Shown here piece by piece: positions 10,968 to 43,085 of a stretch of 43,085 bases of DNA (within the stretch, counting starts at the first letter, position 1; each line of letters begins with the position of its first letter). The stretch is from positions 1 through 43,085 of IMG/VR virus record IMGVR_UViG_3300031673_000137; one strand, 5' to 3'. A model generated the notes under the pieces. It did no database searches. It saw only the letters and a program-made list of their open reading frames with translations, and was not told where the DNA came from. The stretch comes from a virus. Position numbers and translations under genes: made by a program.

Positions 10968-11531
10968 TTAAGCTAAAGCGGAATCTTCATCCTCGAAGCT
11001 CATATCTTCAAAGTCCGATTCGTCGGCCACCGAACCGGCTGAGAATGCGTCACCATCCGCCGCGAACTGAACCCCCAATAACTCGCAACGGAGCGTCTTT
11101 CCATAGCGATTATCTTGTGCCCAAATTTCTACGCTGGCGTTCACATAGCAACCCGCGTAAGGGCGACCGTCTGCTTCGGTGAGAGGGCTTTTGTCGCGGT
11201 CGATAACCAAGGGGCGACCCTTCGTTTCACCACGCTTCGCAGTAAGGGCTTGAACGCCATCGTAGCCGTCGTATTCCTTCGTGCTGCCATCCCAGTAACA
11301 GACCTTCTGGGAGTTGTTGGATGCCAGCGCCGCCTTGAGAATCGGTGCGTGCTTCACACCCCATTTTTCCTCAGAAGCCTTCTGCATCGCGACACGGATT
11401 GCTTTGTCGTTCGCGCTGCCTGGCTCGACCAACAGCGTACAGCCGTAAGTCTTTGTGCCGCCTTCTTCAAACGCTTTGGCGGTGAACAGATCAGGGAACG
11501 ACAAACGTACTTTTTTCAGGTTGATTTTCAT
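10968..11531 (-). CDS. ssDNA-binding protein, DUF2815 / T7 gp2.5-like (187 aa)
   Basis: N-terminal VRLSFPDLFTAKAF, typical for the family. Acidic C-terminal tail ESDFEDMSFEDEDSALA. Sits in a replication module. Confidence 0.7.
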   Translation of the reverse strand: MKINLKKVRLSFPDLFTAKAFEEGGTKTYGCTLLVEPGSANDKAIRVAMQKASEEKWGVKHAPILKAALASNNSQKVCYWDGSTKEYDGYDGVQALTAKRGETKGRPLVIDRDKSPLTEADGRPYAGCYVNASVEIWAQDNRYGKTLRCELLGVQFAADGDAFSAGSVADESDFEDMSFEDEDSALA

Positions 11532-11597: not shown

Positions 11598-12269
11598 TTA
11601 TTCTTTAATTCGGTTCTTAGGCTTCACAAAAACCAAAAAGTACGAATGGTTTTTTCGAGCATGGACTTGCTTCTTCATCCGGCTAACTACAGGCCGGTTG
11701 TTGCGCACCACAACAAATATATCCTTTGCGTAGTACCCCCGCGCCACCATCGCGTTGATAATTTCTACATGCGTCAGCCATTGCTTGTTCGCGCTCACTT
11801 CATCTTGGCACTTTACTATCAGCACGCCGCTCGACTTCAAAACACGATCCGCTTCCGCGCATCCTTCTAAGTACAGATTTAGAATCGCTGCGTGGTATTT
11901 GCCCGCCCCGCTACAGCGTTGCAGCCCGTAGTAATCCCCAAAGGCTTGCTGCCCTTCGCTGTACGCCGTACCGCGCATCGCACCTTCCATGTAGGGAGGG
12001 TCTAGCACCAGAGCGTCCATGCTTGCGTCAGGGTAAGGCAACGCGCGAAGATCAACCCCATCTTGTATATCTGTCGCGTGCAGTTGGTACGCTCCTGCGG
12101 GAACCTTGCGCCAAAACACCCCTTTACCGTAAGTTACGTCGGCCACCGCTCCCCCTTGTTTAACGTGCAGCGCCAACAGCGAGGGGAACACATCCGCATT
12201 ACCTTTGATGTGCGCGCTGAGAATCAAATCGGTAGTCGCTTCACCTCCCTGTATGCGCTTTGCCTTCAA
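11598..12269 (-). CDS. DNA methyltransferase (DPPY motif; probably N6-adenine)
   Basis: [10 protein letters not shown] catalytic motif preceded by an ADVTYGKG AdoMet-like motif. Confidence 0.7.
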
Positions 12270-13540
12270 GCTAAATCCTCACCGCTAATATCGTCGAACG
12301 CATCCGCGACCGGCTCGATCACCAGTGCATCCCGCTTATCGCTCACCGGCGCGACACTCGGCTTGCCATCGGATCGCGTGATGAGCGCCTGTAGCTTGTT
12401 CCACCGCTTCGGCGTTTCCTTCAACACCTTCTCGGCGACTGTCGGGCTAATGAGCTTGAACGAATACATCTCGTCCTGCTTCAAGCGCATGGACTTCAAC
12501 ATCTTCTCGGCCTCAAGCTCGTCCAGCCAGCTACGCGAACCCTTGCGCCCTTGCACCAGCTTGAACCCCGGCACGTCATGCCCTTTGAGCAATTCGCTCT
12601 CCGCGCGGGCGCGCACCGCCGTGCACCAACTCTCGATCAGGTCAACCGCTTTGAGACAGTTCGAGACGTGGAGATTATCGGCATTTGCGATGCGCTCTTC
12701 CGCACTTGCGAGTTGCGGGGCGATGTCTTGCGAGATGTCTACGAAGTCATCGGACACGGTGGATAGGACGAAGCTGCGCAGCGCGGGGCAGAACGACTTG
12801 GCCTTGCACCAGCGGCACGCATCTTCGGATGGTTGCAGCACGTTGCTGCCGCCAGCGAACATCATTTGAACTTCTGCTCGGCCTGCTGTGTGGTAATTAA
12901 AGGCATCTTGCGCCTTCTCCGCATACTCAACCCGAAACGCCTCCAGTTGTTCGCGCGTGATTACCCATTCGCTTACCGCAAACAAGCGGGGCTGGTGGAT
13001 GCCAAGCCTGATCTGCTTGATGTCATCCGCCAAGTCCAGCATCTCGATCAGCGCGAGCGCACCGAGCGCGTAGAGTTGCATTTGCTCGTTGTCCTCCGCT
13101 TCGACCTTGTTGCCCATCCCGTATTTCAGATCGCGGATTTCAAGCGTGTCACCCTTGACGATAATCGCGTCCGACGTGCCGAACTGCCCTGGTACGCCGA
13201 TCGCGTTGGAGTAATCTACTCGCTGTTCGACGAGTAGCGTTCCGCCTTCGGCTGCGGCGTTGATCTGATCGACGTAGGTTTGGACGAAATTACACATGTC
13301 CTCATCAACAGGATGCAAGAGATCGCCGCCGATCTTGATTTCGCTGTGGGGAAATTCATGGGGTGAAGTAACGCCTAGATTTCGCGCATTCAAACACCAA
13401 GCCGCCAGTTCGTGCGCGGCGGTTCCCTCGTCGGCGTAGCCCGACGACTTATTTTCTTGCCCCGCTTCCATCGCGGGACTGCCAGGGCAGTTGCCCCAGC
13501 GGTGCGCGGCACTCGCGGATAATAGTGCGTGGTCAGCCAT
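12266..13540 (-). CDS. PD-(D/E)xK exonuclease, DUF2800 / Cas4-like family (424 aa)
   Basis: N-terminal [16 protein letters not shown] signature. Cys cluster C..CKAKSFC near the middle. Start set at MADH behind a GGGAGA RBS. Confidence 0.7.
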
Positions 13541-13880
13541 TGGTTTCTCCCTTCTCAAAATCGGAGCGTGGGTTAAACCAGTCCTCTTTTACGATGTTTC
13601 CGATCTCATAAACTTTTGAGTGATCCGCTTTAACACGAATCGTTTTCCCCGGTAGCTGATCCCAACTCGAAACACCAGCAATCTCCATTACGCGCCAGAT
13701 AAAGTGTCCCGCTAAACTCTTCATCTCGTGGTGGGTGAAACTCTTGGGCAGGTATAGCGCCCAGCCCCCGAAGCCTTGCCCTTCGCCGCCGTAGTCGAGG
13801 TGTAGCCACGCCCCGAGGCACCCGTGATCGTCGTTGGTAATCAACGCGCTTTTAATAATCGCGTTCCGCGTCTCCATCAC
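13533..13880 (-). CDS. Hypothetical protein (115 aa)
   Basis: ORF in the operon, coupled to its neighbours. Confidence 0.55.
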
Positions 13881-17514: not shown

Positions 17515-17735
17515 TGGCGCTTAAAATTGCGGAAAGGCTGCAAGCGCGGCTGGCGTCCACAGGGTTAATCGTGGATGTTCCCAAACGTCAGTATACAGGG
17601 CATTGGCAACGCTCGGAAGGCGCGTGGTCTTGGTCTGCGCTAGTTACAGATCAATACTATGAGGTTGGCTCGCCGCACACAATGCGAGAATGCCTAAAGA
17701 TGTCAGATGAAGATTTTGCGCAGGCGGTTGAATAA
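17511..17735 (+). CDS. Hypothetical protein (74 aa)
   Basis: Coupled by overlaps to both neighbouring genes. Confidence 0.5.
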   Translation: MMALKIAERLQARLASTGLIVDVPKRQYTGHWQRSEGAWSWSALVTDQYYEVGSPHTMRECLKMSDEDFAQAVE

Positions 17736-18361
17736 TGGCGCTTGAAGCATATGAGATTCGCCGTATTGATTACCAGACCGCGATGCAGGTTGTGGTCGAA
17801 AATCACTACCTACATCGCCGTTGCCCTTGCACAAACGCCTTTGGTCTTTTTCTTGGGGATGAGTTGAAAGGCGTTGTGGTGTACGGTACGCCAGCGAGTT
17901 CGCCGTTGCGTACCGGGATCGCGGGCGCAGAAAATGCGAACAACGTGGCCGAGTTGACGCGGCTTTGGGTTTGCGATTCGGTTCCGCGTAACGGAGAGAG
18001 CTTTCTTATCGGGCGCACGGTGGCGCTCGCGGGTAAAGAGATCGTCGTGTCCTACGCGGAGATACAACAGGGGCACGTCGGCATAGTGTATCAGGCTACG
18101 AACTGGCTTTACACAGGGCTATCCGCGAAGCGGACGAACTGGACGGTAGAAGGGCTGGATAAGCACTGCCAGACGCTTGCGGACAAGTACACCGCGAAAG
18201 AGATTCGGGAGAAGTACGGCGACAAATTCAGCCTCCAAGAGCGCCCCCGGAAGCATCGCTACGTGTTCATCAACGCAAAGGGTCGGCACAGAAAAGAGTT
18301 GCTGGCAGCGTTGAAATACCCACTTCTACCCTACCCAAAAAGCGCAGAATCGCTCTGCTGA
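17735..18361 (+). CDS. GNAT-fold protein resembling the Mom family (adenine methylcarbamoylation DNA modification)
   Basis: NHYLHRRCP..AFGLF...LKGVVVYGTPAS...AELTRLWV...NGESFLI...VVSYAEIQQGHVGIVYQATNWLYTG matches my memory of Mom-family proteins. Not verified. Confidence 0.45.
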   Translation: MALEAYEIRRIDYQTAMQVVVENHYLHRRCPCTNAFGLFLGDELKGVVVYGTPASSPLRTGIAGAENANNVAELTRLWVCDSVPRNGESFLIGRTVALAGKEIVVSYAEIQQGHVGIVYQATNWLYTGLSAKRTNWTVEGLDKHCQTLADKYTAKEIREKYGDKFSLQERPRKHRYVFINAKGRHRKELLAALKYPLLPYPKSAESLC

Positions 18362-18556
18362 TGCGCCCCAAAACGCCTTCACGGCATTAAATTCGTCCCG
18401 CCACCGCGCGGGCGAGAGATGGCAATAGCTGTTCACATAAACGCTTGGGTATTCGATACCGACGTAGTAGAAGTATCCCTCCCCTTTCACTAGTTCAGCC
18501 GCGATCCCGTGGCGGCGCAATTCAGCATTGTATTTTGAAAGGCTGTTTAGGAGCAT
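18326..18556 (-). CDS. Hypothetical protein (76 aa), convergent with and overlapping the 3' end of the Mom-like gene
   Basis: GAGGTG RBS 7 nt upstream of ATG 18556. Own near-consensus promoter. 36-nt tail-to-tail overlap with 17735-18361. Confidence 0.6.
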   Translation of the reverse strand: MLLNSLSKYNAELRRHGIAAELVKGEGYFYYVGIEYPSVYVNSYCHLSPARWRDEFNAVKAFWGASAERFCAFWVG

Positions 18557-18581
18557 TTTGACACCTCAGTTTTGAAGCCGC

Positions 18582-18610
18582 AGTATAGGCAACGATTTCC
18601 GCTTTGTCAA
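18582..18610 (-). promoter_or_regulatory. Near-consensus sigma70 promoter (TTGACA-17-TATACT) for the 76-aa gene
   Basis: The -35 is the reverse complement of 18605-18610. The -10 is the reverse complement of 18582-18587. The spacer was counted as 17 nt. Confidence 0.65.
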
Positions 18611-18639
18611 GTAGCCAACCCACCTTTTCACAACCCGCG

Positions 18640-19263: not shown

Positions 19264-19319
19264 CACACGGCAAAACATGCCTCACAATGCGCCAACTCAA
19301 CGAACCAAGGAACCAAACA

Positions 19320-19493
19320 ATGAAACCCGAAGAATTCAAAGCACTCCGCGAATCCCGCGAAGGTATGACGCAAGAACGACTAGCCGAACTGATGTCCTGT
19401 TCCGCCCGGACAATCCGCAACTACGAGAACGGCACCGGTAGCTTGCCGGATCGCGCCGTGAAGATGCTTGAACTGGTGCTCAAAGCGAAATGA
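19320..19493 (+). CDS. XRE-family HTH protein (57 aa)
   Basis: MTQERLAELMSCSARTIRNYENGTGSLP is a canonical XRE HTH. Start set at ATG 19320 behind AAGGAA. Confidence 0.7.
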   Translation: MKPEEFKALRESREGMTQERLAELMSCSARTIRNYENGTGSLPDRAVKMLELVLKAK

Positions 19494-19837
19494 GCGACAT
19501 AGCCCTCCAACTCCACAACGGTGTTAGCATATTCGTCGATAGCCAGACAGGTTGCTTTTCGACGAACGAATCGGAGACGCAGTGGACGCGCCTGCGCGAC
19601 TTGAAAGCGCACCTCGACAGCCGAATAACCGTGGATGAGCTGATCGCGATGACGGAGCGTAAAAGCTACTGGATAATTGGGGATAAAAAGCTGCACGCAA
19701 TCAGAAATTTAAAAGATTACACAGGCCGCTACATAATGTCTCGCGACGGGGCTGAACTACTCGGCTACCCGGTATTCCTCGACACGCAAGACGAAAACGC
19801 TCTTTCCTTTTTCACACCGGCGAGCACAATCCCATGA
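19490..19837 (+). CDS. Hypothetical protein (115 aa)
   Basis: ATGA overlap with the XRE gene. Confidence 0.55.
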   Translation: MSDIALQLHNGVSIFVDSQTGCFSTNESETQWTRLRDLKAHLDSRITVDELIAMTERKSYWIIGDKKLHAIRNLKDYTGRYIMSRDGAELLGYPVFLDTQDENALSFFTPASTIP

Positions 19838-20028
19838 GCGACGAGGTAGACGTGGCGAACGACTTGGCATACGCCTACGCCAACTCAGGAGTAGCCAAGG
19901 CTGCGTCGGAAGCCGCCAAGCCTATACCGACCTCACCCGTGTGCTTAGAATGCGGGGAAGGCACCGCAGGAGGCGCGAGATGGTGCTCCGCGAGTTGCCG
20001 CGACTACCACGAGATGCGCAACCGATAA
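19834..20028 (+). CDS. Small C4 zinc-finger protein (64 aa)
   Basis: CLEC-x11-C-x3-C. ATGA overlap with the previous gene. Followed by a strong terminator. Confidence 0.55.
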   Translation: MSDEVDVANDLAYAYANSGVAKAASEAAKPIPTSPVCLECGEGTAGGARWCSASCRDYHEMRNR

Positions 20029-20068
20029 TTTTTTTTGTGTTACTCCCTCCGCGCCTCACGGTGCGTTC

Positions 20069-20101
20069 ATCCCGCAGAAGTCTTGCGGGATTTTTTTTTT
20101 T
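20069..20101 (+). terminator. Strong rho-independent terminator
   Basis: Stem ATCCCGCA / TGCGGGAT with loop GAAGTCT, followed by T11. Confidence 0.85.
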
Positions 20102-20190
20102 GATGTTCAGCTTTTAAGGGCGAGTTGCAACCGCTCGAAAGGCGCAAAGAACCCGCTGGTGTTCGCCATATCCCGCGCTTTGATATTTTG

Positions 20191-20340
20191 AAAGTGTGAG
20201 TAGGATTTCGATTCGGCTTGATCAAAGTGTGAGTAGGATTTCGATTCGGCTTGATCAAAGTGTGAGTAGGATTTCGATTCGGCTTGATCATAGTGTGAGT
20301 AGGATTTCGATTCGGCTTGATCATAGTGTGAGTAGGTTTT
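20191..20340. repeat. Iteron array: 33-bp unit AAAGTGTGAGTAGGATTTCGATTCGGCTTGATC x 4 plus a partial fifth copy
   Basis: Copies start at 20191, 20224, 20257, 20290 and 20323 (partial). Units differ only at the A/T after GATCA. Each full unit carries a GATC. Confidence 0.9.
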
Positions 20341-20423
20341 CACATATAAGCCGCTTCCCGCTTCCTGGCGCGCCCTTCCCGCATAGGTTAGTAACCACTA
20401 TCAAAATAAATTGCAAAAGACTA

Positions 20424-20452
20424 TTGACAAGGCGGAAAATAATGCCGATTAT
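20424..20452 (+). promoter_or_regulatory. Sigma70 promoter (TTGACA-17-GATTAT)
   Basis: The -35 is 20424-20429 and the -10 is 20447-20452. Lies upstream of the gene at 20488. Confidence 0.55.
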
Positions 20453-20487
20453 GAACGCCTCAAAACCACAAAACGAAAGGGATTATC

Positions 20488-20772
20488 ATGGCTAAAATCA
20501 CTAAAATCGAAAAACGAGTAGCTTTTATCCTGTCGCATAAAGAGGCACTTAAGGCAGCGCGCTGTCCTGAGTCTGGCAGCCCGACAAATGCCGCGCGTCG
20601 CTCGGGCATGTCCGGCGGGGGTTGGGGATATTGGGCGCAGGCTTTTAAAAGGGCGGGGGTGCCGTGTAGCGCACAAAACTACTGGTCTGGCAGTCTGCCA
20701 ACACCGTCAACCGCAATAAATAAGGGTATTGCGGAATACATCGGGGTTAACGCGCCCGCCGATATAAAATAA
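20488..20772 (+). CDS. Hypothetical protein (94 aa)
   Basis: AAGGGA RBS. Own promoter. Confidence 0.55.
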   Translation: MAKITKIEKRVAFILSHKEALKAARCPESGSPTNAARRSGMSGGGWGYWAQAFKRAGVPCSAQNYWSGSLPTPSTAINKGIAEYIGVNAPADIK

Positions 20773-20775
20773 TTC

Positions 20776-20804
20776 TTTACAACAGGCAAAAATTGCCGTA
20801 TAAC
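20776..20804 (+). promoter_or_regulatory. Sigma70 promoter (TTTACA-17-TATAAC) with palindrome GGCAAAAATTGCC in the spacer
   Basis: The -35 is 20776-20781 and the -10 is 20799-20804. Confidence 0.5.
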
Positions 20805-20859
20805 GTAATCACTGGCCGCACAAATGACGCGCCAGGATAACCAAATAGGAGTAACAAAA

Positions 20860-21180
20860 ATGAAACAAACTATCGGATTATCAGACTTTCGCGACGCCTT
20901 TATCCATGCGGGGCGTAAAGAGAATTTTAGCTATGAAGCGCTTGAATTGCTTTTTAATATGTGCGAAGAGATAGACGAAAACATGGAGCTGGATGTTATC
21001 GCGCTTTGTTGTGAGTATTACGAAAATGACCTCGAAACAGTTATTAGCGAATATCGCTTAACTGATGATGTGGACGGCATGGATGAAGACGAAAAGATGG
21101 ATTTTGTTCGGGAATATCTGAACGAAAACACTTTTCTTGTTGGCGAAACATCGTCCGGCTTCGTTTATCAGGCGTTTTGA
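20860..21180 (+). CDS. Highly acidic hypothetical protein (106 aa; 27 D/E vs 7 K/R)
   Basis: AGGAG RBS 8 nt upstream of ATG 20860. Residue composition counted by hand. Confidence 0.6.
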   Translation: MKQTIGLSDFRDAFIHAGRKENFSYEALELLFNMCEEIDENMELDVIALCCEYYENDLETVISEYRLTDDVDGMDEDEKMDFVREYLNENTFLVGETSSGFVYQAF

Positions 21181-21208
21181 TATGACAATCCTCGCCCAAC
21201 TGACAGCG

Positions 21209-21293
21209 ATCCACAAACGCCGGCGCATATGGTGTGGCATCCTGGCAGCGGCATTCGCGAAACACGAAACTAAAATCACGAGGAGGTATTGAG
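21209..21293 (+). promoter_or_regulatory. Conserved leader, copy A (homologous to 22320-22405; 34-bp identical core 21236-21269)
   Basis: Aligned by eye. Shared core GGCATCCTGGCAGCGGCATTCGCGAAACACGAAA and shared RBS AGGAGGTATTGA. Contains a 14-codon uORF at 21229-21273. Confidence 0.7.
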
Positions 21294-21737
21294 ATGTCCA
21301 GTATAAACACTTTTAACGACGACACTAGCGAGGAATTGCGCAGCATCATTTGCCGATTGAACGATACCCGCGAACGTGTGCGCGTGTTTTATGGGGATAT
21401 AAAAACCGGCATAGCATGGCCCGAGGAAAACGATGTGGTAGGCCGTATAGGCTGCTCAACCGGGGGAAGCAAAATCCCGTTGCTGATACCCAATGCGCGC
21501 AGTCACGGCGGCGGCGGACTGCTCGATGGTTGCATCGTCGCGATATATGGCACATCAGGCCGCAAAATATACGCGCATCCTACGTTTTGCACGGGTATTT
21601 GGGGCGTAACCGGGCCTGTAAATAATGGCTATGTCGAAGCCGTATCCCACAATGGCAAATTACATGCGCAATTCAAAAAAGCCGGTCAAGCCGCGCGTTA
21701 TGTGGATTTTATGAATGGCGCGCGCTTTAGCAAATAG
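21294..21737 (+). CDS. Hypothetical protein (147 aa), cassette cargo A
   Basis: AGGAGG RBS 7 nt upstream. The last 4 codons (RFSK) and the stop lie inside a 60-bp repeat shared with the 22406-22609 cassette. Confidence 0.6.
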   Translation: MSSINTFNDDTSEELRSIICRLNDTRERVRVFYGDIKTGIAWPEENDVVGRIGCSTGGSKIPLLIPNARSHGGGGLLDGCIVAIYGTSGRKIYAHPTFCTGIWGVTGPVNNGYVEAVSHNGKLHAQFKKAGQAARYVDFMNGARFSK

Positions 21738-21745
21738 CAGGCCCT

Positions 21746-21769
21746 ATCCGCATTTCGGTGCGGGTTTTT
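21746..21769 (+). terminator. Rho-independent terminator, copy 1 of 3
   Basis: Stem ATCCGCA / TGCGGGT (one G-U pair) with loop TTTCGG, followed by T5. Confidence 0.75.
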
Positions 21770-21791
21770 ATGAAATTGAGAGGTGAAAATT

Positions 21792-22079
21792 ATGATATAC
21801 GATAATGCAACATCAACAGCCGGCAAAAGGATAAAGTTGCGCACGGATGGCACTTTCACTCTGGCGTTTTGCCCAAATTGTGTGGAAAGCACGCCGGTAA
21901 CCTTGCGCGCTTTTGTGTGTGAGAAATCGCTATCGCGCCTGGCGGAGAAATACGGGTTTGGCAGTAAAGCAGCAAAGGCATTGGCGCTTGATTTTCAAAA
22001 ATCGGCACACGGATTGAATAAATTTTCCGTGCAAATTTTTAACGCGGATGGCGTGCTGGTTGGTGATTTTAATCTTTGA
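21792..22079 (+). CDS. Hypothetical protein (95 aa)
   Basis: GAGAGGTG RBS 6 nt upstream of ATG 21792. Confidence 0.55.
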   Translation: MIYDNATSTAGKRIKLRTDGTFTLAFCPNCVESTPVTLRAFVCEKSLSRLAEKYGFGSKAAKALALDFQKSAHGLNKFSVQIFNADGVLVGDFNL

Positions 22080-22082
22080 GCT

Positions 22083-22106
22083 ATCCGCATTTCGGTGCGG
22101 GTTTTT
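22083..22106 (+). terminator. Rho-independent terminator, copy 2 of 3
   Basis: The 27-bp core at 22081-22107 is identical to 21744-21770. Confidence 0.75.
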
Positions 22107-22137
22107 AGTGAATAGATAATTGAGAGGTTAAAATAAA

Positions 22138-22320
22138 ATGGATACTCTAATTGCAAGAAAATGCAGCGATGGCAGCGTGGAGGTGTGGCGTAGTGCGGCG
22201 ACAGATCATCAACCCATTATGCGATTCGCGTCCTATCTGACAAACAAACTGGATTATAGGCATAAGTACGTGACGTATAACTGTGCACGCTATAACGTCA
22301 GGTGGGATAAAAGACAGTAA
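22138..22320 (+). CDS. Hypothetical protein (60 aa)
   Basis: GAGAGGT RBS upstream. Confidence 0.5.
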   Translation: MDTLIARKCSDGSVEVWRSAATDHQPIMRFASYLTNKLDYRHKYVTYNCARYNVRWDKRQ

Positions 22321-22405
22321 TCCACAAAAGGCGCGCGATATGGCGCGGCATCCTGGCAGCGGCATTCGCGAAACACGAAAAACAAATTATTAGGAGGTAT
22401 TGAAA
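22320..22405 (+). promoter_or_regulatory. Conserved leader, copy B (34-bp identical core 22347-22380)
   Basis: See copy A. Contains a 17-codon uORF at 22340-22393 whose TAG stop overlaps the downstream AGGAGG RBS. Confidence 0.7.
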
Positions 22406-22609
22406 ATGGCGTGCTTAACAAACTACACGGTGCAATGCACCGACGTTGTGTCAGGACTTGTTGGTTGCTTCCTTTTCGACACAATGCACTGGCAGAAAAC
22501 GGGGGAATTCAAGGCGATATCTCCGGTTTTTTCTGACCTTGCCGCGTTTTATAACGCCACTACGCATGATCAGCGTAAAGCCTGCTATCTGGAGCGCTTT
22601 AGCAAATAG
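22406..22609 (+). CDS. Hypothetical protein (67 aa), cassette cargo B
   Basis: AGGAGG RBS 8 nt upstream. C-terminal RFSK plus stop lie inside the shared 60-bp repeat. Confidence 0.55.
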   Translation: MACLTNYTVQCTDVVSGLVGCFLFDTMHWQKTGEFKAISPVFSDLAAFYNATTHDQRKACYLERFSK

Positions 22610-22617
22610 CAGGCCCT

Positions 22618-22641
22618 ATCCGCATTTCGGTGCGGGTTTTT
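22618..22641 (+). terminator. Rho-independent terminator, copy 3 of 3
   Basis: Lies within the 60-bp perfect repeat 22594-22653 = 21722-21781. Confidence 0.75.
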
Positions 22642-22670
22642 ATGAAATTGAGAATTGAAAGGAAATAATC

Positions 22671-22838
22671 ATGAGCGGATCGAGAAAGGCATTAGCAATG
22701 TGGGGCGCGCAACAATTGACGCGCAGGGGCAAAGCGATACCAGACAGCACGCGCAAGGTGGCGGGCAATGGGTATGCTACGGCGTTAGCGAGCGCGCAAA
22801 CACCGACAAAAAAGATAAAAAAATCATGCTCTATTTAA
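22671..22838 (+). CDS. Hypothetical basic protein (55 aa); the alternative frame 22655-22876 (73 aa) cannot be excluded
   Basis: ATG 22671 lies 6 nt after AAAGGAAA. The 73-aa alternative would need a TTG start without an RBS. Confidence 0.35.
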   Translation: MSGSRKALAMWGAQQLTRRGKAIPDSTRKVAGNGYATALASAQTPTKKIKKSCSI

Positions 22839-22901
22839 TCGCTGTAATTCTCTACATCCTGCGCACCCAGGATTAAACCCCTTCCCCTAATCGCAACATA
22901 C

Positions 22902-22930
22902 AGCCCGCCATTGTGCGGGCTTTTTGCTTT
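22902..22930 (+). terminator. Rho-independent terminator closing the accessory region
   Basis: Stem GCCCGC / GCGGGC with loop CATTGT, followed by TTTTTGCTTTT. Confidence 0.75.
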
Positions 22931-22970
22931 TGTAGCGTTTCACCAGGTAGCTGGATCGAGTGTTGATACC

Positions 22971-23240
22971 TGCCCATCAGCACTGCCCATCAGCACCGCC
23001 CATCAGCACCACCCATCAGCACCACCCATCAGCACCACCCATCAGCACCACCCATCAGCACTGCCCATCAGCACTGCCCATCAGCCCTCAGCCCTCAGCC
23101 CTCAGCCCTCAGCCCTCAGCCCTCAGCCCTCAGCCCTCAGCCCTCAGCCCTCAGCCCTCAGCCCTCAGCCCTCCGCCCTCAACCCTCAGCCCTGCCCTGC
23201 CCTGCCCTGCCCGCCGCCGCCGCCGCCGCCGCCGCCGCCG
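22971..23240. repeat. Compound C-rich satellite: 13-bp x 8.8, then 7-bp x 15, then 5-bp x 4, then 3-bp x 10
   Basis: Hand count. (Y)(G/A)CCCATCAGCAC units at 22971-23085. CCTCAGC units at 23086-23190 (13 perfect, 2 variant). CCTGC units at 23191-23210. CCG units at 23211-23240. Confidence 0.9.
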
Positions 23241-23322
23241 AGGAGGGCATAGGCAATCCCTGCCGCCCTCGCCGCTCTAGACCGCGCATGTGCCTTTACT
23301 TCATCGCTATTCGGGTATTCCG

Positions 23323-30226: not shown

Positions 30227-30598
30227 ATGAGCTATGCACAGCGTCTCGTAGTTCCCGTCACAACAGCGGCGGATGGTTCGGCCACCGCATACAGCGAAGT
30301 CCTCACCGGCAAGCTGTCGCAGATTCGCTACGTCAAGACGGACTTTGACAACGGTGTTGGTTTCACGATTACCGCAGAAGCCACTGGCGAAACGCTCTGG
30401 GCGGAAGCGGCGGTGAATGCCAGCGCCACCCGCGCCCCGCGCCAGGCAACGCACAGCACGGCGGGCGTGGCTGCGCTATACGCCGCTGCGGGAACGGCTG
30501 TAAATGACAAAATCGCACTGGCGAACGATCGCGTCAAAATCGTAATCGCGGCTGGCGGTAACGTCAAGAGCGGGGTTTTTCATTTTGTAATCGAATAA
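30227..30598 (+). CDS. Hypothetical virion protein (123 aa)
   Basis: Tightly packed in the head module. Confidence 0.55.
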   Translation: MSYAQRLVVPVTTAADGSATAYSEVLTGKLSQIRYVKTDFDNGVGFTITAEATGETLWAEAAVNASATRAPRQATHSTAGVAALYAAAGTAVNDKIALANDRVKIVIAAGGNVKSGVFHFVIE

Positions 30599-30608
30599 GG
30601 AGAATCAC

Positions 30609-30959
30609 ATGCCTGCAATCGTCGCAACAAGTATGCTCGGAGCCGGATCGCGCGTAATCACCGAAACCACTCTGAACGGCACGGACAGTTTCACGTTCAA
30701 CCCGACCAAGAATCCGATTATGATTCTGAAAAACACCACGGCGGGGCCGCTGACCGCTACGTTCGTAGGCTCTACCGCCACGACTATCTCGGTGGACGGT
30801 GTGCCGTCTGTGTCCGTCGCAGCGGGTTACGCCACAACCGCAATCGCGGCGACCACTGGCGTTGTCGCCGTGCCTCTGAACACGATCAAGGCATACCTGC
30901 AAGGCACGCTGACAATCACCGGCGGAACAGGCCTGACAGCTACGCTGCTGGAGTTCTAA
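30609..30959 (+). CDS. Hypothetical virion protein (116 aa)
   Basis: AAGGAGAA RBS. Sits in the head module. Confidence 0.55.
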
Positions 30960-42037: not shown

Positions 42038-43085
42038 GTTCTCCCGATTTCAAATTCGTAGCGCCCACCGTTATCACCGATGCGATGCTCACGTCGAGCA
42101 ACGTACCCGAAGCGGTAGCCGCAACCTACGCTGGCGGAACGACCTACGCGCTCGCGGATCGCGTCGGACTTGCCCCTGTTGACGGCGCGGCACAACTTAT
42201 TTACGAATCGCTATCCGCAGGCAACATCGGCAACCCACTCCCTGTCCCCCCGGCTACCGCGACGGCATTTTGGCGTTATGTTGGGAGTGTCTACCCTGCG
42301 TACTCCGCCGCCGTTACCTACGGACTCGGCGCGACAGTATCGAGCACATCAACCAATGTGCATGAGCTGTACGAATCGCTAGTCGCGGGTAATGTCGGCA
42401 ATGCGCTCACTGATGCTACGAAATGGCTTGATCTTGGTTCGACGAACCGCTGGGCGATGTTCGATCAGATCATGGCCAGCCAAACCACAAATGCGGAAAG
42501 CATTACGCTGGTGCTCGCACCGGGCGTACTGATAAATTCTGTTGTACTCGCCAATCTTATCGGCGGCAGTGTTCGTATCCAGCAGTCGATCAGCGGATAC
42601 GACCGAACTATTTCGCTTAATTCTCACGTTGCTGCGGATTGGTACGGCTGGTTCTACGACCCGCTGCTTACCAAGAGCGCGGTGGCGTTCATGGACATCC
42701 CGCCCTATCCAGCGGGTGTACTTACGATCACCATATCAGGAACTAACGGTACTGCCGGGTGCGGGGTTATCGTGCTCGGGCAGGCAACCTACATAGGCAC
42801 AACGTTAGCCAACCCGACCAGGGGGATCAATGACTATTCACGGATTATAGAGGACGCTTGGGGCGGTTTGGTGCTTGTGCCGGGGGGTTACTCTGCTACT
42901 TTGAGTGTCGAGGTATTTGTCCCGGAAGGGTACGAATCGCAAGCCGTGGCTTTACTCGCCAGCATCCGCGCTACACCAGTGATGTTTGTGGCGGGTGACA
43001 ACTTTGATGCCAGCATAGTTTATGGTATTCTTGGGCGAAACTGGACTGTACCTATGGCTGTAACGGGTAATATCGCCCGACTTGA
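42034..43085 (+). CDS. Tail tip / host-recognition-associated protein, 5' part (full gene 42034 -> junction -> 146, 356 aa)
   Basis: ATGA overlap with the previous gene. The frame has no stop up to the window end, which is why the ORF track does not list it. It contains two copies of a Y..G..V....YESL.AGN.GN.L motif. Confidence 0.7.
   Translation, partial: MSSPDFKFVAPTVITDAMLTSSNVPEAVAATYAGGTTYALADRVGLAPVDGAAQLIYESLSAGNIGNPLPVPPATATAFWRYVGSVYPAYSAAVTYGLGATVSSTSTNVHELYESLVAGNVGNALTDATKWLDLGSTNRWAMFDQIMASQTTNAESITLVLAPGVLINSVVLANLIGGSVRIQQSISGYDRTISLNSHVAADWYGWFYDPLLTKSAVAFMDIPPYPAGVLTITISGTNGTAGCGVIVLGQATYIGTTLANPTRGINDYSRIIEDAWGGLVLVPGGYSATLSVEVFVPEGYESQAVALLASIRATPVMFVAGDNFDASIVYGILGRNWTVPMAVTGNIARL
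42959..43085. repeat. Second copy of the 127-bp terminal overlap
   Basis: Identical to 1-127. Confidence 0.95.

Follow-up and report, generated by a model that had tools for sequence, protein, structure and literature searches.

Classical morons, as conceived by Hendrix and colleagues, carry their own promoter and lack mutually homologous flanks, and the start-associated sequences and similar repeats of mycobacteriophages are motifs of 13-17 bp, scattered over the whole genome in many copies, for which a role in translation has been suggested. Morons and the mosaicism that arises by illegitimate recombination in lambdoid and HK97-like phages have been summarised (PMC2839356), start-associated sequences and conserved intergenic repeats are mentioned in other papers (PMC4351075, PMC7302621), and relaxed, short-homology recombination by phage single-strand-annealing recombinases has been linked to mosaicism (De Paepe et al., 2014, PMC3945230; Neamah et al., 2017, PMC5499656). 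The closest analogue of the locus reported here is the promoter-early stem-loop (PeSL) cassette of T4-type hyperplastic regions (Arbiol et al., 2010, PMC2839356; Comeau et al., 2014, PMC4122927); in both cases short blocks are repeated in the spacers between small, mostly uncharacterised ORFs of a hyperplastic region.

The window, by which we mean the whole stretch of 43,085 nucleotides analyzed, is the complete, circularly assembled ~43-kb genome of an uncultured phage (about 42,958 bp, with a 127-bp terminal overlap), a siphovirus with HK97-type packaging genes, whereas PeSLs belong to T4-like myoviruses. An operon of small accessory genes lies between the replication genes on one side and the packaging genes on the other, in agreement with an earlier note on this DNA, which had placed the region between early and packaging genes. 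Its G+C content is 41-57% over 20.4-22.9 kb, compared with 58-65% in the adjacent packaging genes and ~60% in the structural genes. The same seven small ORFs that the note had counted were called independently in four other assemblies of the phage:

20488-20772, + strand: w94, ORF of 94 aa (independent gene calls)
20860-21180, + strand: w106, acidic ORF of 106 aa (independent gene calls)
21294-21737, + strand: w147, ORF of 147 aa, member of phrog_17487
21792-22079, + strand: w95, ORF of 95 aa between blocks T1 and T2 (independent gene calls)
22138-22320, + strand: w60, ORF of 60 aa whose last codons and stop lie within leader 2 (independent gene calls)
22406-22609, + strand: w67, ORF of 67 aa, of the family NYTxQCxD..SG..GCFLFD...TG.F.A.SPVF
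22671-22838, + strand: w55, basic ORF of 55 aa (independent gene calls)

No Pfam or PHROG match was found for w94, nor any match in Pfam, PHROG or cultured phages for w95; w106 weakly matched phrog_9974, and its homologues in Psychrobacter, Nitrincola and Edwardsiella phages (36-39% identical) are all annotated as hypothetical. At w55, an alternative 73-aa frame was called in one assembly. For comparisons among strains we used five contigs of the phage (the window, L002, L003, L004 and L005; 98-99.8% identical). The arrangement, with the same order and junctions, was found in five contigs from four samples, assembled by the independent JGI and ENA k141 pipelines. Short-read assembly can go wrong at repeats of 60 bp, and the contigs of relatives often break near the region, but given this agreement it is highly improbable that the repeats merely joined contigs of different phages.

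The borders and putative control elements of the operon are as follows:

20069-20091, + strand: strong intrinsic terminator (9-bp stem, then T10) that closes the upstream DksA-like gene; left border
20158-20340, no strand assigned: tandem array (sequence repeat) in which a 33-bp unit, AAAGTGTGAGTAGGATTTCGATTCGGCTTGATC, recurs ~4.5 times ahead of the operon promoter
20424-20452, + strand: sigma-70-like promoter candidate for the operon, TTGACA-17-GATTAT (consensus match, 10/12)
20776-20804, + strand: second promoter-like site, TTTACA-17-TATAAC (read by eye)
22902-22921, + strand: strong intrinsic terminator (-13.7 kcal/mol, z = -2.8); right border

The left-border terminator has a comparable folding energy (-13.5 kcal/mol, z = -3.2), and between the terminators at 20069 and 22902 the operon is probably transcribed rightward from the sigma-70-like promoter at 20424. 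The site at 20776-20804, whose spacer holds a small inverted repeat (GGCAA-AAA-TTGCC), was passed over by the promoter scan because the last base of its -10 hexamer is C. Promoter-like sites were found upstream of w94 and w106 only, leaving five of the seven genes with none, and the flanking sequences recur; on these points the comparison with morons made in the note fails, a moron being a single gene that has its own promoter and terminator. What does recall moron mosaicism is the lower G+C content of small accessory genes between conserved modules, relative to the adjacent packaging genes, and the terminator-like hairpins that follow w147, w95 and w67. The tandem array is a candidate operator or iteron array; its core, GAAAGTGYRAG, recurs in arrays at the same place in L002/L003, in L019 and in L022, a more distant relative. 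In L002/L003 a different version replaces the entire control segment, 20069-20464, the module upstream of the operon being swapped between strains that are 98% identical.

All five spacers 3´ of w106 are of just two types, L and T, in the order L, T, T, L, T. Multiple copies are a PeSL trait, although here there are just three T and two L copies within one 1.5-kb stretch:

21182-21292, + strand: candidate small ORF w36 (36 codons; MTILAQLTAIHKRRRIWCGILAAAFAKHETKITRRY), which contains leader 1 (21202-21292)
21722-21790, + strand: block T1, consisting of the last 13 nt of w147, a hairpin at 21746-21765 (8 bp, UUCG loop), U5 and the w95 ribosome-binding region
22081-22134, + strand: block T2, with the same hairpin (22083-22102), U5 and the w60 ribosome-binding region, and a 6-nt insertion relative to T1
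22313-22403, + strand: leader 2, which duplicates the final 27-30 codons of w36 and keeps the AGGAGG ribosome-binding site, serving w67
22594-22662, + strand: block T3, consisting of a copy of the w147 3´ end, the hairpin (22618-22637), U5 and the w55 leader

The T blocks share a 27-bp core, CTATCCGCATTTCGGTGCGGGTTTTTA, present in exactly three copies (21744, 22081 and 22616, all on the + strand), as the note had counted; no further copy was found at ≤3 mismatches, and 0 were expected by chance (100 shuffles). The perfect 60-bp repeat (21722-21781 = 22594-22653) was likewise confirmed and extends to 67 nt at 97% identity; it begins 13 nt 5´ of both TAG stops, and w147 and w67 thus both end in RFSK, as the note had read. 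Past the hairpin, homology extends as far as the following gene's start codon (AATTGAGAGGTGAAAAT), as PeSL homology reaches the Shine-Dalgarno sequence and start codon. With a G+C-rich stem and, directly after it, a U-tract in the transcript orientation, the T hairpins have the sequence features of an intrinsic (Rho-independent) terminator, and the U-tract and G-U pairs fit the + strand only. Their predicted stability is moderate, at -10.1 kcal/mol no better than that of shuffles of the same 41 nt (z = -0.7), and the other terminators of this genome have sequences unrelated to T. The T blocks may be leaky intrinsic terminators or 3´-end stabilisers, each giving the next gene its ribosome-binding site; the stem-loop, present in the T blocks and not in L, where folding gave no significant structure, recalls that of PeSLs and may terminate or attenuate transcription. 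The consensus promoter scan found none in L1, L2 or T2, and the only matches overlapping T1 and T3 (21776 and 22642; 9/12) have a -10 hexamer that coincides with the following start codon or lies past it. In having no sigma-70-like promoter, the L and T blocks differ from PeSLs.

The two leaders (21202-21292 and 22313-22403) are 82% identical over 91 nt without gaps, and share an identical 34-bp core (21236-21269 = 22347-22380) plus AGGAGGTATTGA, with 0 such matches expected by chance. The homologous leaders with a common core and ribosome-binding context proposed in the note are thus real, with a length of 91 nt. Leader 1 falls within w36, which starts 1 nt past the w106 stop and stops 1 nt ahead of the w147 ATG. 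L103 and L104 encode w147 homologues (80% and 76% identical, respectively), and directly upstream of each is an open ORF homologous to leader 1, 40-41 codons long. The start codon of this ORF overlaps the preceding stop codon, and only 1-2 nt separate its end from the w147 ATG, suggestive of translational coupling. By this comparison of sequences, the leader natively belongs with the 147-aa gene, and the L blocks, unlike PeSL blocks, would derive from a small coding sequence and not from a regulatory motif. Although w36 was reported by no gene caller, we infer that it is translated: its copies have a pN/pS of 0.4-0.8 (three diverged copies; a weak signal), and the reading frame is kept in L103 and L104. 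Between the two window copies of the frame one Arg codon differs (CGC vs AGG); against coding, the conserved RRY* overlaps the Shine-Dalgarno sequence. Leader 2 has no start codon, is preceded by an in-frame stop (TAA, 22308-22310) and at some positions resembles L103 more than it does leader 1.

As for the shared C-terminus, w147 matches phrog_17487 over its full length (residues 6-147 on profile positions 3-147; E = 3.2e-38), and the C-terminus FMxGxRFSK is conserved across its 26 homologues, also in CR8 and BS46. The w67 family comprises 40 representative homologues and 16 IMG/VR loci, and the homologues compared (22 aligned plus the 16 loci) end in YLER followed by a variable tail, never in RFSK. 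Judged by these families, RFSK is the native C-terminus of the 147-aa family and is foreign to the 67-aa family, the last three codons of w67 (FSK) and its stop deriving from w147. The 3´ junction between the two lies at a shared Arg codon (GCGC microhomology), which fits the moron-type pattern of junctions at gene boundaries or microhomology with selection keeping viable products. Since leader and RFSK both natively belong to w147, the second unit is a derived chimera, and the flanks are not neutral cassette ends; the note had treated the flanks as equivalent cassette ends, and this symmetry is lost.

The shared flanks on both sides, together with a weak C-terminal BLASTP alignment (E = 9), could also be read as tandem duplication and divergence, with w147 and w67 as paralogues. 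Profile-profile comparison (hhalign) gave a 0.3% probability of relatedness, however, and each protein belongs to a family of its own, represented in many unrelated phages. Identity is 82-100% in the flanks, whereas nothing is shared between the bodies; the transplanted tail accounts for all common residues. The predicted folds also differ; the AlphaFold2 model of w147 (pLDDT 92.5) showed only weak likeness to WYL/Sm-like barrels in the PDB (E at least 0.07) and matched only uncharacterised phage proteins in a viral structure library, and the model of w67 (pLDDT 94.9) had no PDB match. Diverged paralogy is effectively refuted, and the two flanked proteins are unrelated, as originally claimed.

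Comparison of the five strains provided direct evidence for exchange between the repeats. Over 2710 bp, L005 differed from the window at only six positions, within 22381-22391 of leader 2, all of them leader-1 sequence; L002 carries the same tract, which makes leader 2 of L005 identical to leader 1. This converted state (L002, L005) cuts across the grouping of the strains by 18 SNPs at 20592-20929 (13 in w94, two in the w94/w106 spacer and three in w106), which sets the window, L004 and L005 against L002 and L003. The repeated blocks still recombine, leaving a conversion tract between the leaders that is polymorphic among strains, and to the extent of conversion the homologous recombination at repeats postulated in the note is upheld. 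Divergence is also patchy, which speaks for conversion as well: the 16 mismatches of the 91-nt leader pair leave the central 34 nt untouched (P = 0.004), and there are none in the 60-nt T block (P = 2e-4).

The exact identities of 27, 34 and 60 bp fall at functionally plausible positions (terminator and ribosome-binding site), and 20929-22250 is free of SNPs in the five strains, as might be expected if purifying selection on sites for a regulator, RNase or antiterminator, and not recombination, preserved the blocks. We regard this as rather unlikely. The leader in L103 and L104 is strongly divergent in the 34-bp core at the DNA level with the reading frame kept, so DNA identity there is unneeded for function; among the identical bases are 13 nt that code for the end of w147 and are functionless at the w67 end; six leader-1 changes within 11 nt of one block are a signature of conversion, not of point mutation; and the leaders showed no significant RNA structure on folding and no Rfam match.

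The reading we favor, and consider fairly probable, is that the operon expanded as genes were acquired one after another, with the repeats as both scars and substrates of the process. The original unit would have been w36, w147 and hairpin T. A second copy of its ends would then bracket a w67-family gene, which would have two-thirds of w36 (the 3´ part) on its upstream side and, on its downstream side, the final 13 nt of w147 followed by T. The w147 body would have been replaced from just before the start codon to the shared Arg codon, so that w67 lost its own tail and gained the FSK of w147. In like manner, w60 may have been joined into the truncated w36 copy, from which it takes its stop codon. 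The position of w95 between two T copies is the pattern expected if a circle or partner genome with one T recombined at a resident T, and ectopic homologous recombination (gene conversion) would hold the copies identical. The second unit could have arisen either by intragenomic duplication and body replacement or by import from a related phage, which would look alike. The exchange was probably carried out by two proteins that the phage itself encodes, a Gp2.5-like annealing protein (10968-11531) and PD-(D/E)XK exonuclease (12266-13558), for which tens of base pairs of homology would suffice. No block-bounded insertion, deletion or replacement was seen in the five strains, a small sample, so the sequence of acquisitions is a reconstruction.

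Turnover of the region is evident beyond the strains. One more distant relative, L022 (primase-helicase 74% identical), spans it; contigs of other relatives, assembled from short reads, break at the flanking tandem repeats. L022 retains both anchors, with the genes for w100, HTH and DksA as well as the array and the CCCTCAG repeats, and has none of the seven genes in common and neither an L nor a T block. The region is hyperplastic, its gene content turning over, in line with the comparison drawn in the note. Aligning relatives, the check it had suggested, gave a divided answer: content of the region varies in L022, but the cargo between the conserved blocks is constant, the five near-identical strains keeping the same seven genes in the same order with no exchange between blocks.

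These observations bear on a stronger version of the idea, in which L and T are dedicated, population-wide linkers between which cargo is routinely swapped, possibly via mini-circles as in PeSLs. Every spacer 3´ of w106 is an L or a T, direct T copies stand on both sides of w95, the blocks demonstrably recombine, the upstream control module was swapped between close strains and gene content is completely replaced at 74% primase-helicase identity. Elsewhere in the wider group, too, small ORFs are separated by repeated blocks, particular to each phage, with a promoter, hairpin or ribosome-binding site: L097 has four copies, L111 three plus five and L115 some more, and in CR8 the blocks are of promoter-hairpin type. 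Against this stand the invariant cargo of the five strains, the asymmetrical origin of the flanks and the lack of either block in L022 and around the w67 and w147 homologues elsewhere. The 27-mer and 34-mer were absent from IMG/VR outside this phage, the 20-mer hairpin core was found in JGI metagenome contigs of this phage only, bar unrelated single matches, and the leader 24-mer was absent from GTDB genomes. We consider true exchangeable cassettes possible but doubtful. Of the cassette shuffling first proposed, the recombining repeats, unrelated cargo and variable region stand, but no relative carries other cargo between the same blocks. Nor did any of the results point to anti-defence genes, which the note had associated with such positions.

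Integron-type gene cassettes were also rejected: no integrase or recombinase family was found among Pfam matches to the called genes of the 20-kb loci or the scanned large ORFs, and the block ends are direct repeats, the sole inverted repeat being the terminator stem, with no attC-like ends.

The operon can be set beside the systems introduced above. Like PeSLs, it has repeated blocks between the ORFs of a variable region, an ORF (w95) between direct copies, as circle insertion would give, and recombination between copies by patches of <60 bp, probably with general phage recombination machinery; the earlier comparison holds to this extent, but not for a promoter in the blocks nor for block-bounded changes in the five strains, since close relatives here differ by gene conversion only and not by block-bounded insertion or deletion. 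Short-homology recombination is similar in that an annealing protein and exonuclease are encoded and exchange occurs over 34-60 bp patches within diverged or unrelated DNA, but the recombinase is Gp2.5-like rather than Rad52-like, its role here being presumptive, and the events are intragenomic conversions and not acquisitions from prophages. As with start-associated sequences, a short conserved sequence lies directly upstream of several start codons in one genome, but the repeats here are 50-90 bp, local and contain coding remnants. The operon is a tidy example of a known route by which phages shuffle genes, and not of a new mechanism.

The window carries a 127-bp perfect direct repeat at its ends (1-127 = 42959-43085), and this terminal overlap identifies it as a circularly assembled, complete genome of ~42,958 bp. 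Megablast of the accessory region against phage and plasmid collections returned no close nucleotide match to any cultured phage or plasmid. The seven accessory ORFs, named by their length in amino acids, lie at ~20.4-22.9 kb in the order w94, w106, w147, w95, w60, w67 and w55, in the following setting.

Early genes, leftward and rightward: family-A DNA polymerase; helicase; PD-(D/E)XK exonuclease; Gp2.5-like single-strand-binding/annealing protein; primase-polymerase/helicase; Mom-like protein
20069-20091: strong terminator bounding the region
Head of the region: tandem array of 33-bp units; promoter-like site at 20424
21182-21292: candidate 36-codon ORF (w36)
21202-21292 and 22313-22403: leader blocks L1 and L2, 91 nt each
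21722-21781 and 22594-22653: perfect 60-bp repeat shared by T1 and T3, two of the three T blocks (hairpin plus ribosome-binding site); hairpin on the + strand
22902-22921: strong terminator bounding the region
Downstream: Hendrixvirinae-type small terminase, HNH endonuclease, HK97-like large terminase (55% identity), portal, protease and capsid genes

Tandem arrays were found upstream of the accessory-operon promoter in the window (20158-20340), in the relative L022 (13995-14330) and in the strain L002 (8930-9060). All contain a GAAAGTGYRAG-type core; the window array has 33-bp units, L022 has units of 23, 13 and 14 bp, and L002 and another strain, L003, have a 13-bp unit in nine copies. In these two strains, otherwise 98% identical, an entirely different terminator-array-promoter module stands where the window has 20069-20464. 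The arrays are candidates for an operator or for iterons recognised by a conserved phage DNA-binding protein. Over the upstream terminator (20038-20098), Rfam gave sub-threshold matches to Betaproteobacteria_toxic_sRNA (27 bits, threshold 50) and anti-hemB, which probably reflect the terminator hairpin only. At the other end, a 16-codon hydrophobic mini-ORF noted by eye (MLYLIAVILYILRTQD, 22826-22876) overlaps the end of w55 just 5´ of the final terminator. Immediately 5´ of the small terminase, a C-rich tract (22960-23260) consists of a 13-bp unit, CCCATCAGCACYR, repeated ~8 times, a 7-bp unit, CCCTCAG, repeated ~15 times, and runs of CCCTG and GCC, with G+C up to 75%, a GC skew of -0.6 and a minus strand, (GGGCTGA)n, that matches a G-quadruplex motif. 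Similar repeats occupy the corresponding place in L022 (CCCTCAG) and in the metagenomic contig L104 (14-bp unit), and the relatives' contigs begin or stop there; the tract could be a cos site or a region bound by terminase, or no more than an assembly break point.

Every sequence statement that the earlier note made on the repeats and ORFs proved correct. The homology associated with the hairpins runs on to the next start codon, so that the unrelated ORF bodies are separated by just two kinds of spacer (after w106: L1, T1, T2, L2, T3). The same arrangement was present in four other contigs from four samples, at 98-99.8% identity (L002, L003, L004 and L005; L006 and L012 are the same JGI contig as L002), which excludes an assembly artefact. 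The T hairpin has 8 bp, a UUCG loop, a U5 tract and a folding energy of -10 kcal/mol, on the + strand only. An exact scan of IMG/VR found neither the 27-mer T core nor the 34-mer leader core; in metagenome contigs, the 20-mer hairpin core matched this phage again and, beyond it, seven single terminators of no relation, and a leader 24-mer had no copy in GTDB genomes.

The nature of the leaders was clarified by homologues of w147 on two short metagenomic contigs, L103 (80% identity) and L104 (76%). In both, an open frame of 40-41 codons lies 5´ of the homologue, with an ATG that overlaps the stop of the upstream gene (ATGTCCGCTAA) and a stop 1-2 nt ahead of the w147 start. The window counterpart, at 21182-21292, has 36 codons, begins 1 nt past the w106 stop and ends 1 nt ahead of the w147 ATG. 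The three peptides align as ..L.Q.....R..IW.G..LAA.......RRY* with pN/pS of 0.4-0.8, and the leader DNA is strongly diverged in L103 and L104, even within what is the 34-bp core in the window. A structured RNA or known RNA family was rejected for the leader, with folding z-scores of +1.9 and -1.0 and nothing at the Rfam threshold. Given the frame kept despite diverged DNA, the pN/pS values and the lack of an RNA fold or Rfam match, we read leader 1 as a putative small ORF, w36, coupled in translation to w147 and forming a unit with it, for which the coding evidence is moderate, not strong. A sigma-54 promoter in the leader core (CTGGCA-N6-TTCGCG), picked out by eye, was rejected: its -12 element is TTCG, not TTGC, and the DNA is unconserved in L103 and L104.

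Leader 2 is a copy of the last 27-30 w36 codons only, lacking a start codon and having a stop just upstream in that frame. The w60 stop codon falls within it; a -1 frameshift that would fuse w60 with the shortened w36 frame was discarded for want of a canonical slippery heptamer. No w36-like ORF was present upstream of the distant w147 homologues (CR8, BS46 and nine IMG/VR loci), which confines w36 to the closer clade. A candidate 36-codon ORF had been hidden inside an apparent leader, giving one corrected annotation.

Comparison of the five strains bears on how the repeat copies stay alike. In their 2.7-kb alignment, L005 differs from the window at six positions only, all in 22381-22391, where AACAAATTATT becomes CTAAAATCACG, the exact leader-1 sequence. 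L002 has the same state, and in both strains the last 57 nt of leader 2 equal leader 1. This converted state cuts across the SNP grouping (window, L004 and L005 versus L002 and L003), implying recurrent conversion or exchange between strains. The two leader copies show 16 mismatches in 91 nt and none in the central 34 (P = 0.004), a significantly patchy divergence, and the T block has none in 60 nt (P = 2e-4). Selection on the sequence itself is a poorer explanation of the identity than conversion, because the leader core DNA is unconserved in L103 and L104 and the genome's other terminators differ in sequence from T. At the level of aligned strains, these data show active conversion between the leaders, which the genome-encoded annealing protein and exonuclease could carry out. 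Spacer repeats of 34-60 bp thus appear still to be undergoing homogenisation by gene conversion.

We also traced the RFSK tail common to w147 and w67. A FMxGxRFSK C-terminus is conserved across 26 w147 homologues, with RYAK in CR8 and RMSK in BS46. The w67 protein belongs to a real family (40 representatives at E ≤ 1e-3 in an exhaustive HMMER search; homologues in 16 IMG/VR loci), whose members end in ...(C)YLER plus 1-10 variable residues and never in FSK. The 60-bp repeat starts at an Arg codon common to both families (GA|GCGC vs GC|GCGC), so the w67 body was apparently joined to the last w147 codons at a 4-nt microhomology, with loss of its own tail. Diverged paralogy of the two genes, which the earlier note had set against its own proposal, was ruled out, since the families are unrelated (hhalign probability 0.3%; BLASTP E = 9). 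The two units are not equivalent cassettes: with RFSK native to the w147 family and foreign to the w67 family, the second derives from the first, its body having been replaced. As judged from the family alignments, the w67 unit is shown to be chimeric: its gene body was exchanged exactly between the start codon and the last codons, so that it ends in a transplanted tail. Three C-terminal residues of w67 are therefore non-native, which matters to anyone expressing it. Neither block was present at w67 and w147 homologues elsewhere, and no hairpin followed w147 in L103 or L104.

The cargo proteins gave few functional clues. The w147 protein is a member of phrog_17487 with a confidently predicted model (pLDDT 92.5), and its structure search gave WYL/Sm-like barrels at sub-threshold level only (E ≥ 0.07) and, in a viral structure library, only uncharacterised proteins; a function drawn from the WYL/Sm-like resemblance was dropped as below significance. 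One w147 homologue is annotated as coming from Fluviibacter, a betaproteobacterium, a faint hint of the host. The model of w67 (pLDDT 94.9) had no PDB match. The w106 protein has a few phage homologues, all hypothetical; w95 has no homologue in cultured phages, and w94, w60 and w55 match no Pfam or PHROG family. Upstream of w36-w147, L103 (48-491) and L104 (3-263) encode an acidic protein of ~147 aa (end ...DYDALKQDYTEVDFDGVTYYVR) without a Pfam or PDB sequence match and without detectable relatedness to w106. The idea that w106 and the L103 acidic protein are ArdA-like antirestriction proteins found no support in Pfam and PDB sequence searches. Homologues of the acidic protein lie directly beside w67-family genes in four unrelated IMG/VR phages (L110, L111, L115 and L117). 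Its presence in both neighbourhoods points to a shared accessory gene pool, and the acidic-protein, w67 and w147 families seem to travel together, sharing accessory neighbourhoods in many phages. With confident predicted folds and no significant solved-structure match, all three are reasonable targets for functional screens; none of the findings establishes an anti-defence role for the cargo.

No cargo exchange was observed among the five strains, all of which carry the same seven genes, and clustering at 90% identity groups every one of the seven proteins with this lineage only. Apart from L022, the more distant relatives have contigs that break at the tandem repeats bordering the region on both sides. 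When anchored on the small terminase, every such contig starts 50-250 bp upstream of that gene, leaving the region uncovered; when anchored on the primase-helicase, L019 and L021 stop short of the region, L020 differs in its structural module, and L022 alone (primase-helicase 74% identical) spans the region. L022 retains the 100-aa gene, the HTH gene, the DksA-like gene, the CCCTCAG repeats and a tandem array with the common GTAGGATTTCGAT / GAAAGTG motif. Between these anchors lie three other ORFs, each preceded by a promoter close to consensus, and neither L nor T blocks occur. Anchors kept around different ORFs indicate that the region is hyperplastic, and this gene-order comparison shows turnover of gene content. 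Anchoring on the 100-aa gene gave 80 IMG/VR loci of distant relatives, and neither block, nor any homologue of the seven ORFs, was present at any of them.

Repeated spacer blocks are common in the wider phage set. A promoter-hairpin block occurs four times in L097, hairpin blocks occur three times and ribosome-binding-site leader blocks five times in L111, and the w147 homologue of CR8 lies between promoter-hairpin blocks; in L115, a block beginning within the ORF end flanks the w67 homologue on both sides. One 50-kb viral contig in IMG/VR (3300045240_000072; L106 and L108) has two w67-family copies, one interrupted by a frameshift, each preceded by the same promoter-operator block (TTGACT-N17-TAAAGT with TTGAATTATTCAA).

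Variation was also noted elsewhere in the genome. A second hypervariable slot lies just past the primase-helicase (window 17519-18617 vs L002 6219-7439), where the window's Mom-like gene (17735-18361) is replaced in L002 by a 406-aa cytosine-type DNA methylase; other relatives have N6/N4 methylases, Dam, PAPS-reductase-like or HNH genes, and the slot is apparently devoted to DNA modification. In L002, a 250-aa GIY-YIG/NUMOD3 homing-endonuclease gene (19304-20056) separates two head-tail genes whose window counterparts are 30227-30598 and 30609-30959; the window has no such insertion.

The closest known system is the promoter/stem-loop (PeSL) cassette of T4-type phages (PMC2839356, PMC4122927). 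Both have repeated spacer blocks with stem-loops between ORFs of unknown function, crossovers in patches of <60 bp that reach the Shine-Dalgarno/start-codon region, and use, probable in the window, of general recombination functions. In contrast to PeSL, the window blocks have no promoter in a consensus scan, no block-bounded insertions or deletions separate the five strains, and one block type (L) is a coding remnant. The system is reminiscent, too, of Hendrix-type morons and illegitimate-recombination mosaicism, and of the short-homology recombination that phage annealing proteins carry out (PMC3945230, PMC5499656).

The operon would be transcribed from the promoter-like site at 20424, and perhaps from 20776 too, with the T hairpins attenuating transcription or stabilising 3´ ends and each giving a ribosome-binding site to the next gene. 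New ORFs may have entered by recombining with a T or L copy already in place; a Campbell-type event, for example, would leave w95 between two T copies. Entry could also have occurred through microhomology at ORF ends, with selection keeping expressible products. A bolder reading, which we regard as rather unlikely, is that the T and L blocks together form a siphoviral, promoter-less PeSL counterpart within a single operon. The blocks would then be linkers at which the phage's annealing recombinase inserts, deletes or replaces ORFs with codon-level precision, capturing even a neighbour's C-terminal codons. Circles or relatives present in the same infection would mediate the exchange, and the five strains would look uniform only through shallow sampling.

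The exchangeable-cassette interpretation of the earlier note holds in part: the families are unrelated, the leaders recombine and gene content turns over, but the units are not equivalent, the w67 unit being derived from the w147 unit. The case is a moderately interesting, well-documented example of regulatory-block-mediated mosaicism and not a new mechanism. It offers a clean population-level view of how a phage accessory operon is assembled, with short-homology and microhomology recombination acting within the same 1.5 kb, and places such regulatory blocks in an uncultured siphovirus, far from the T4 group in which they were first described.
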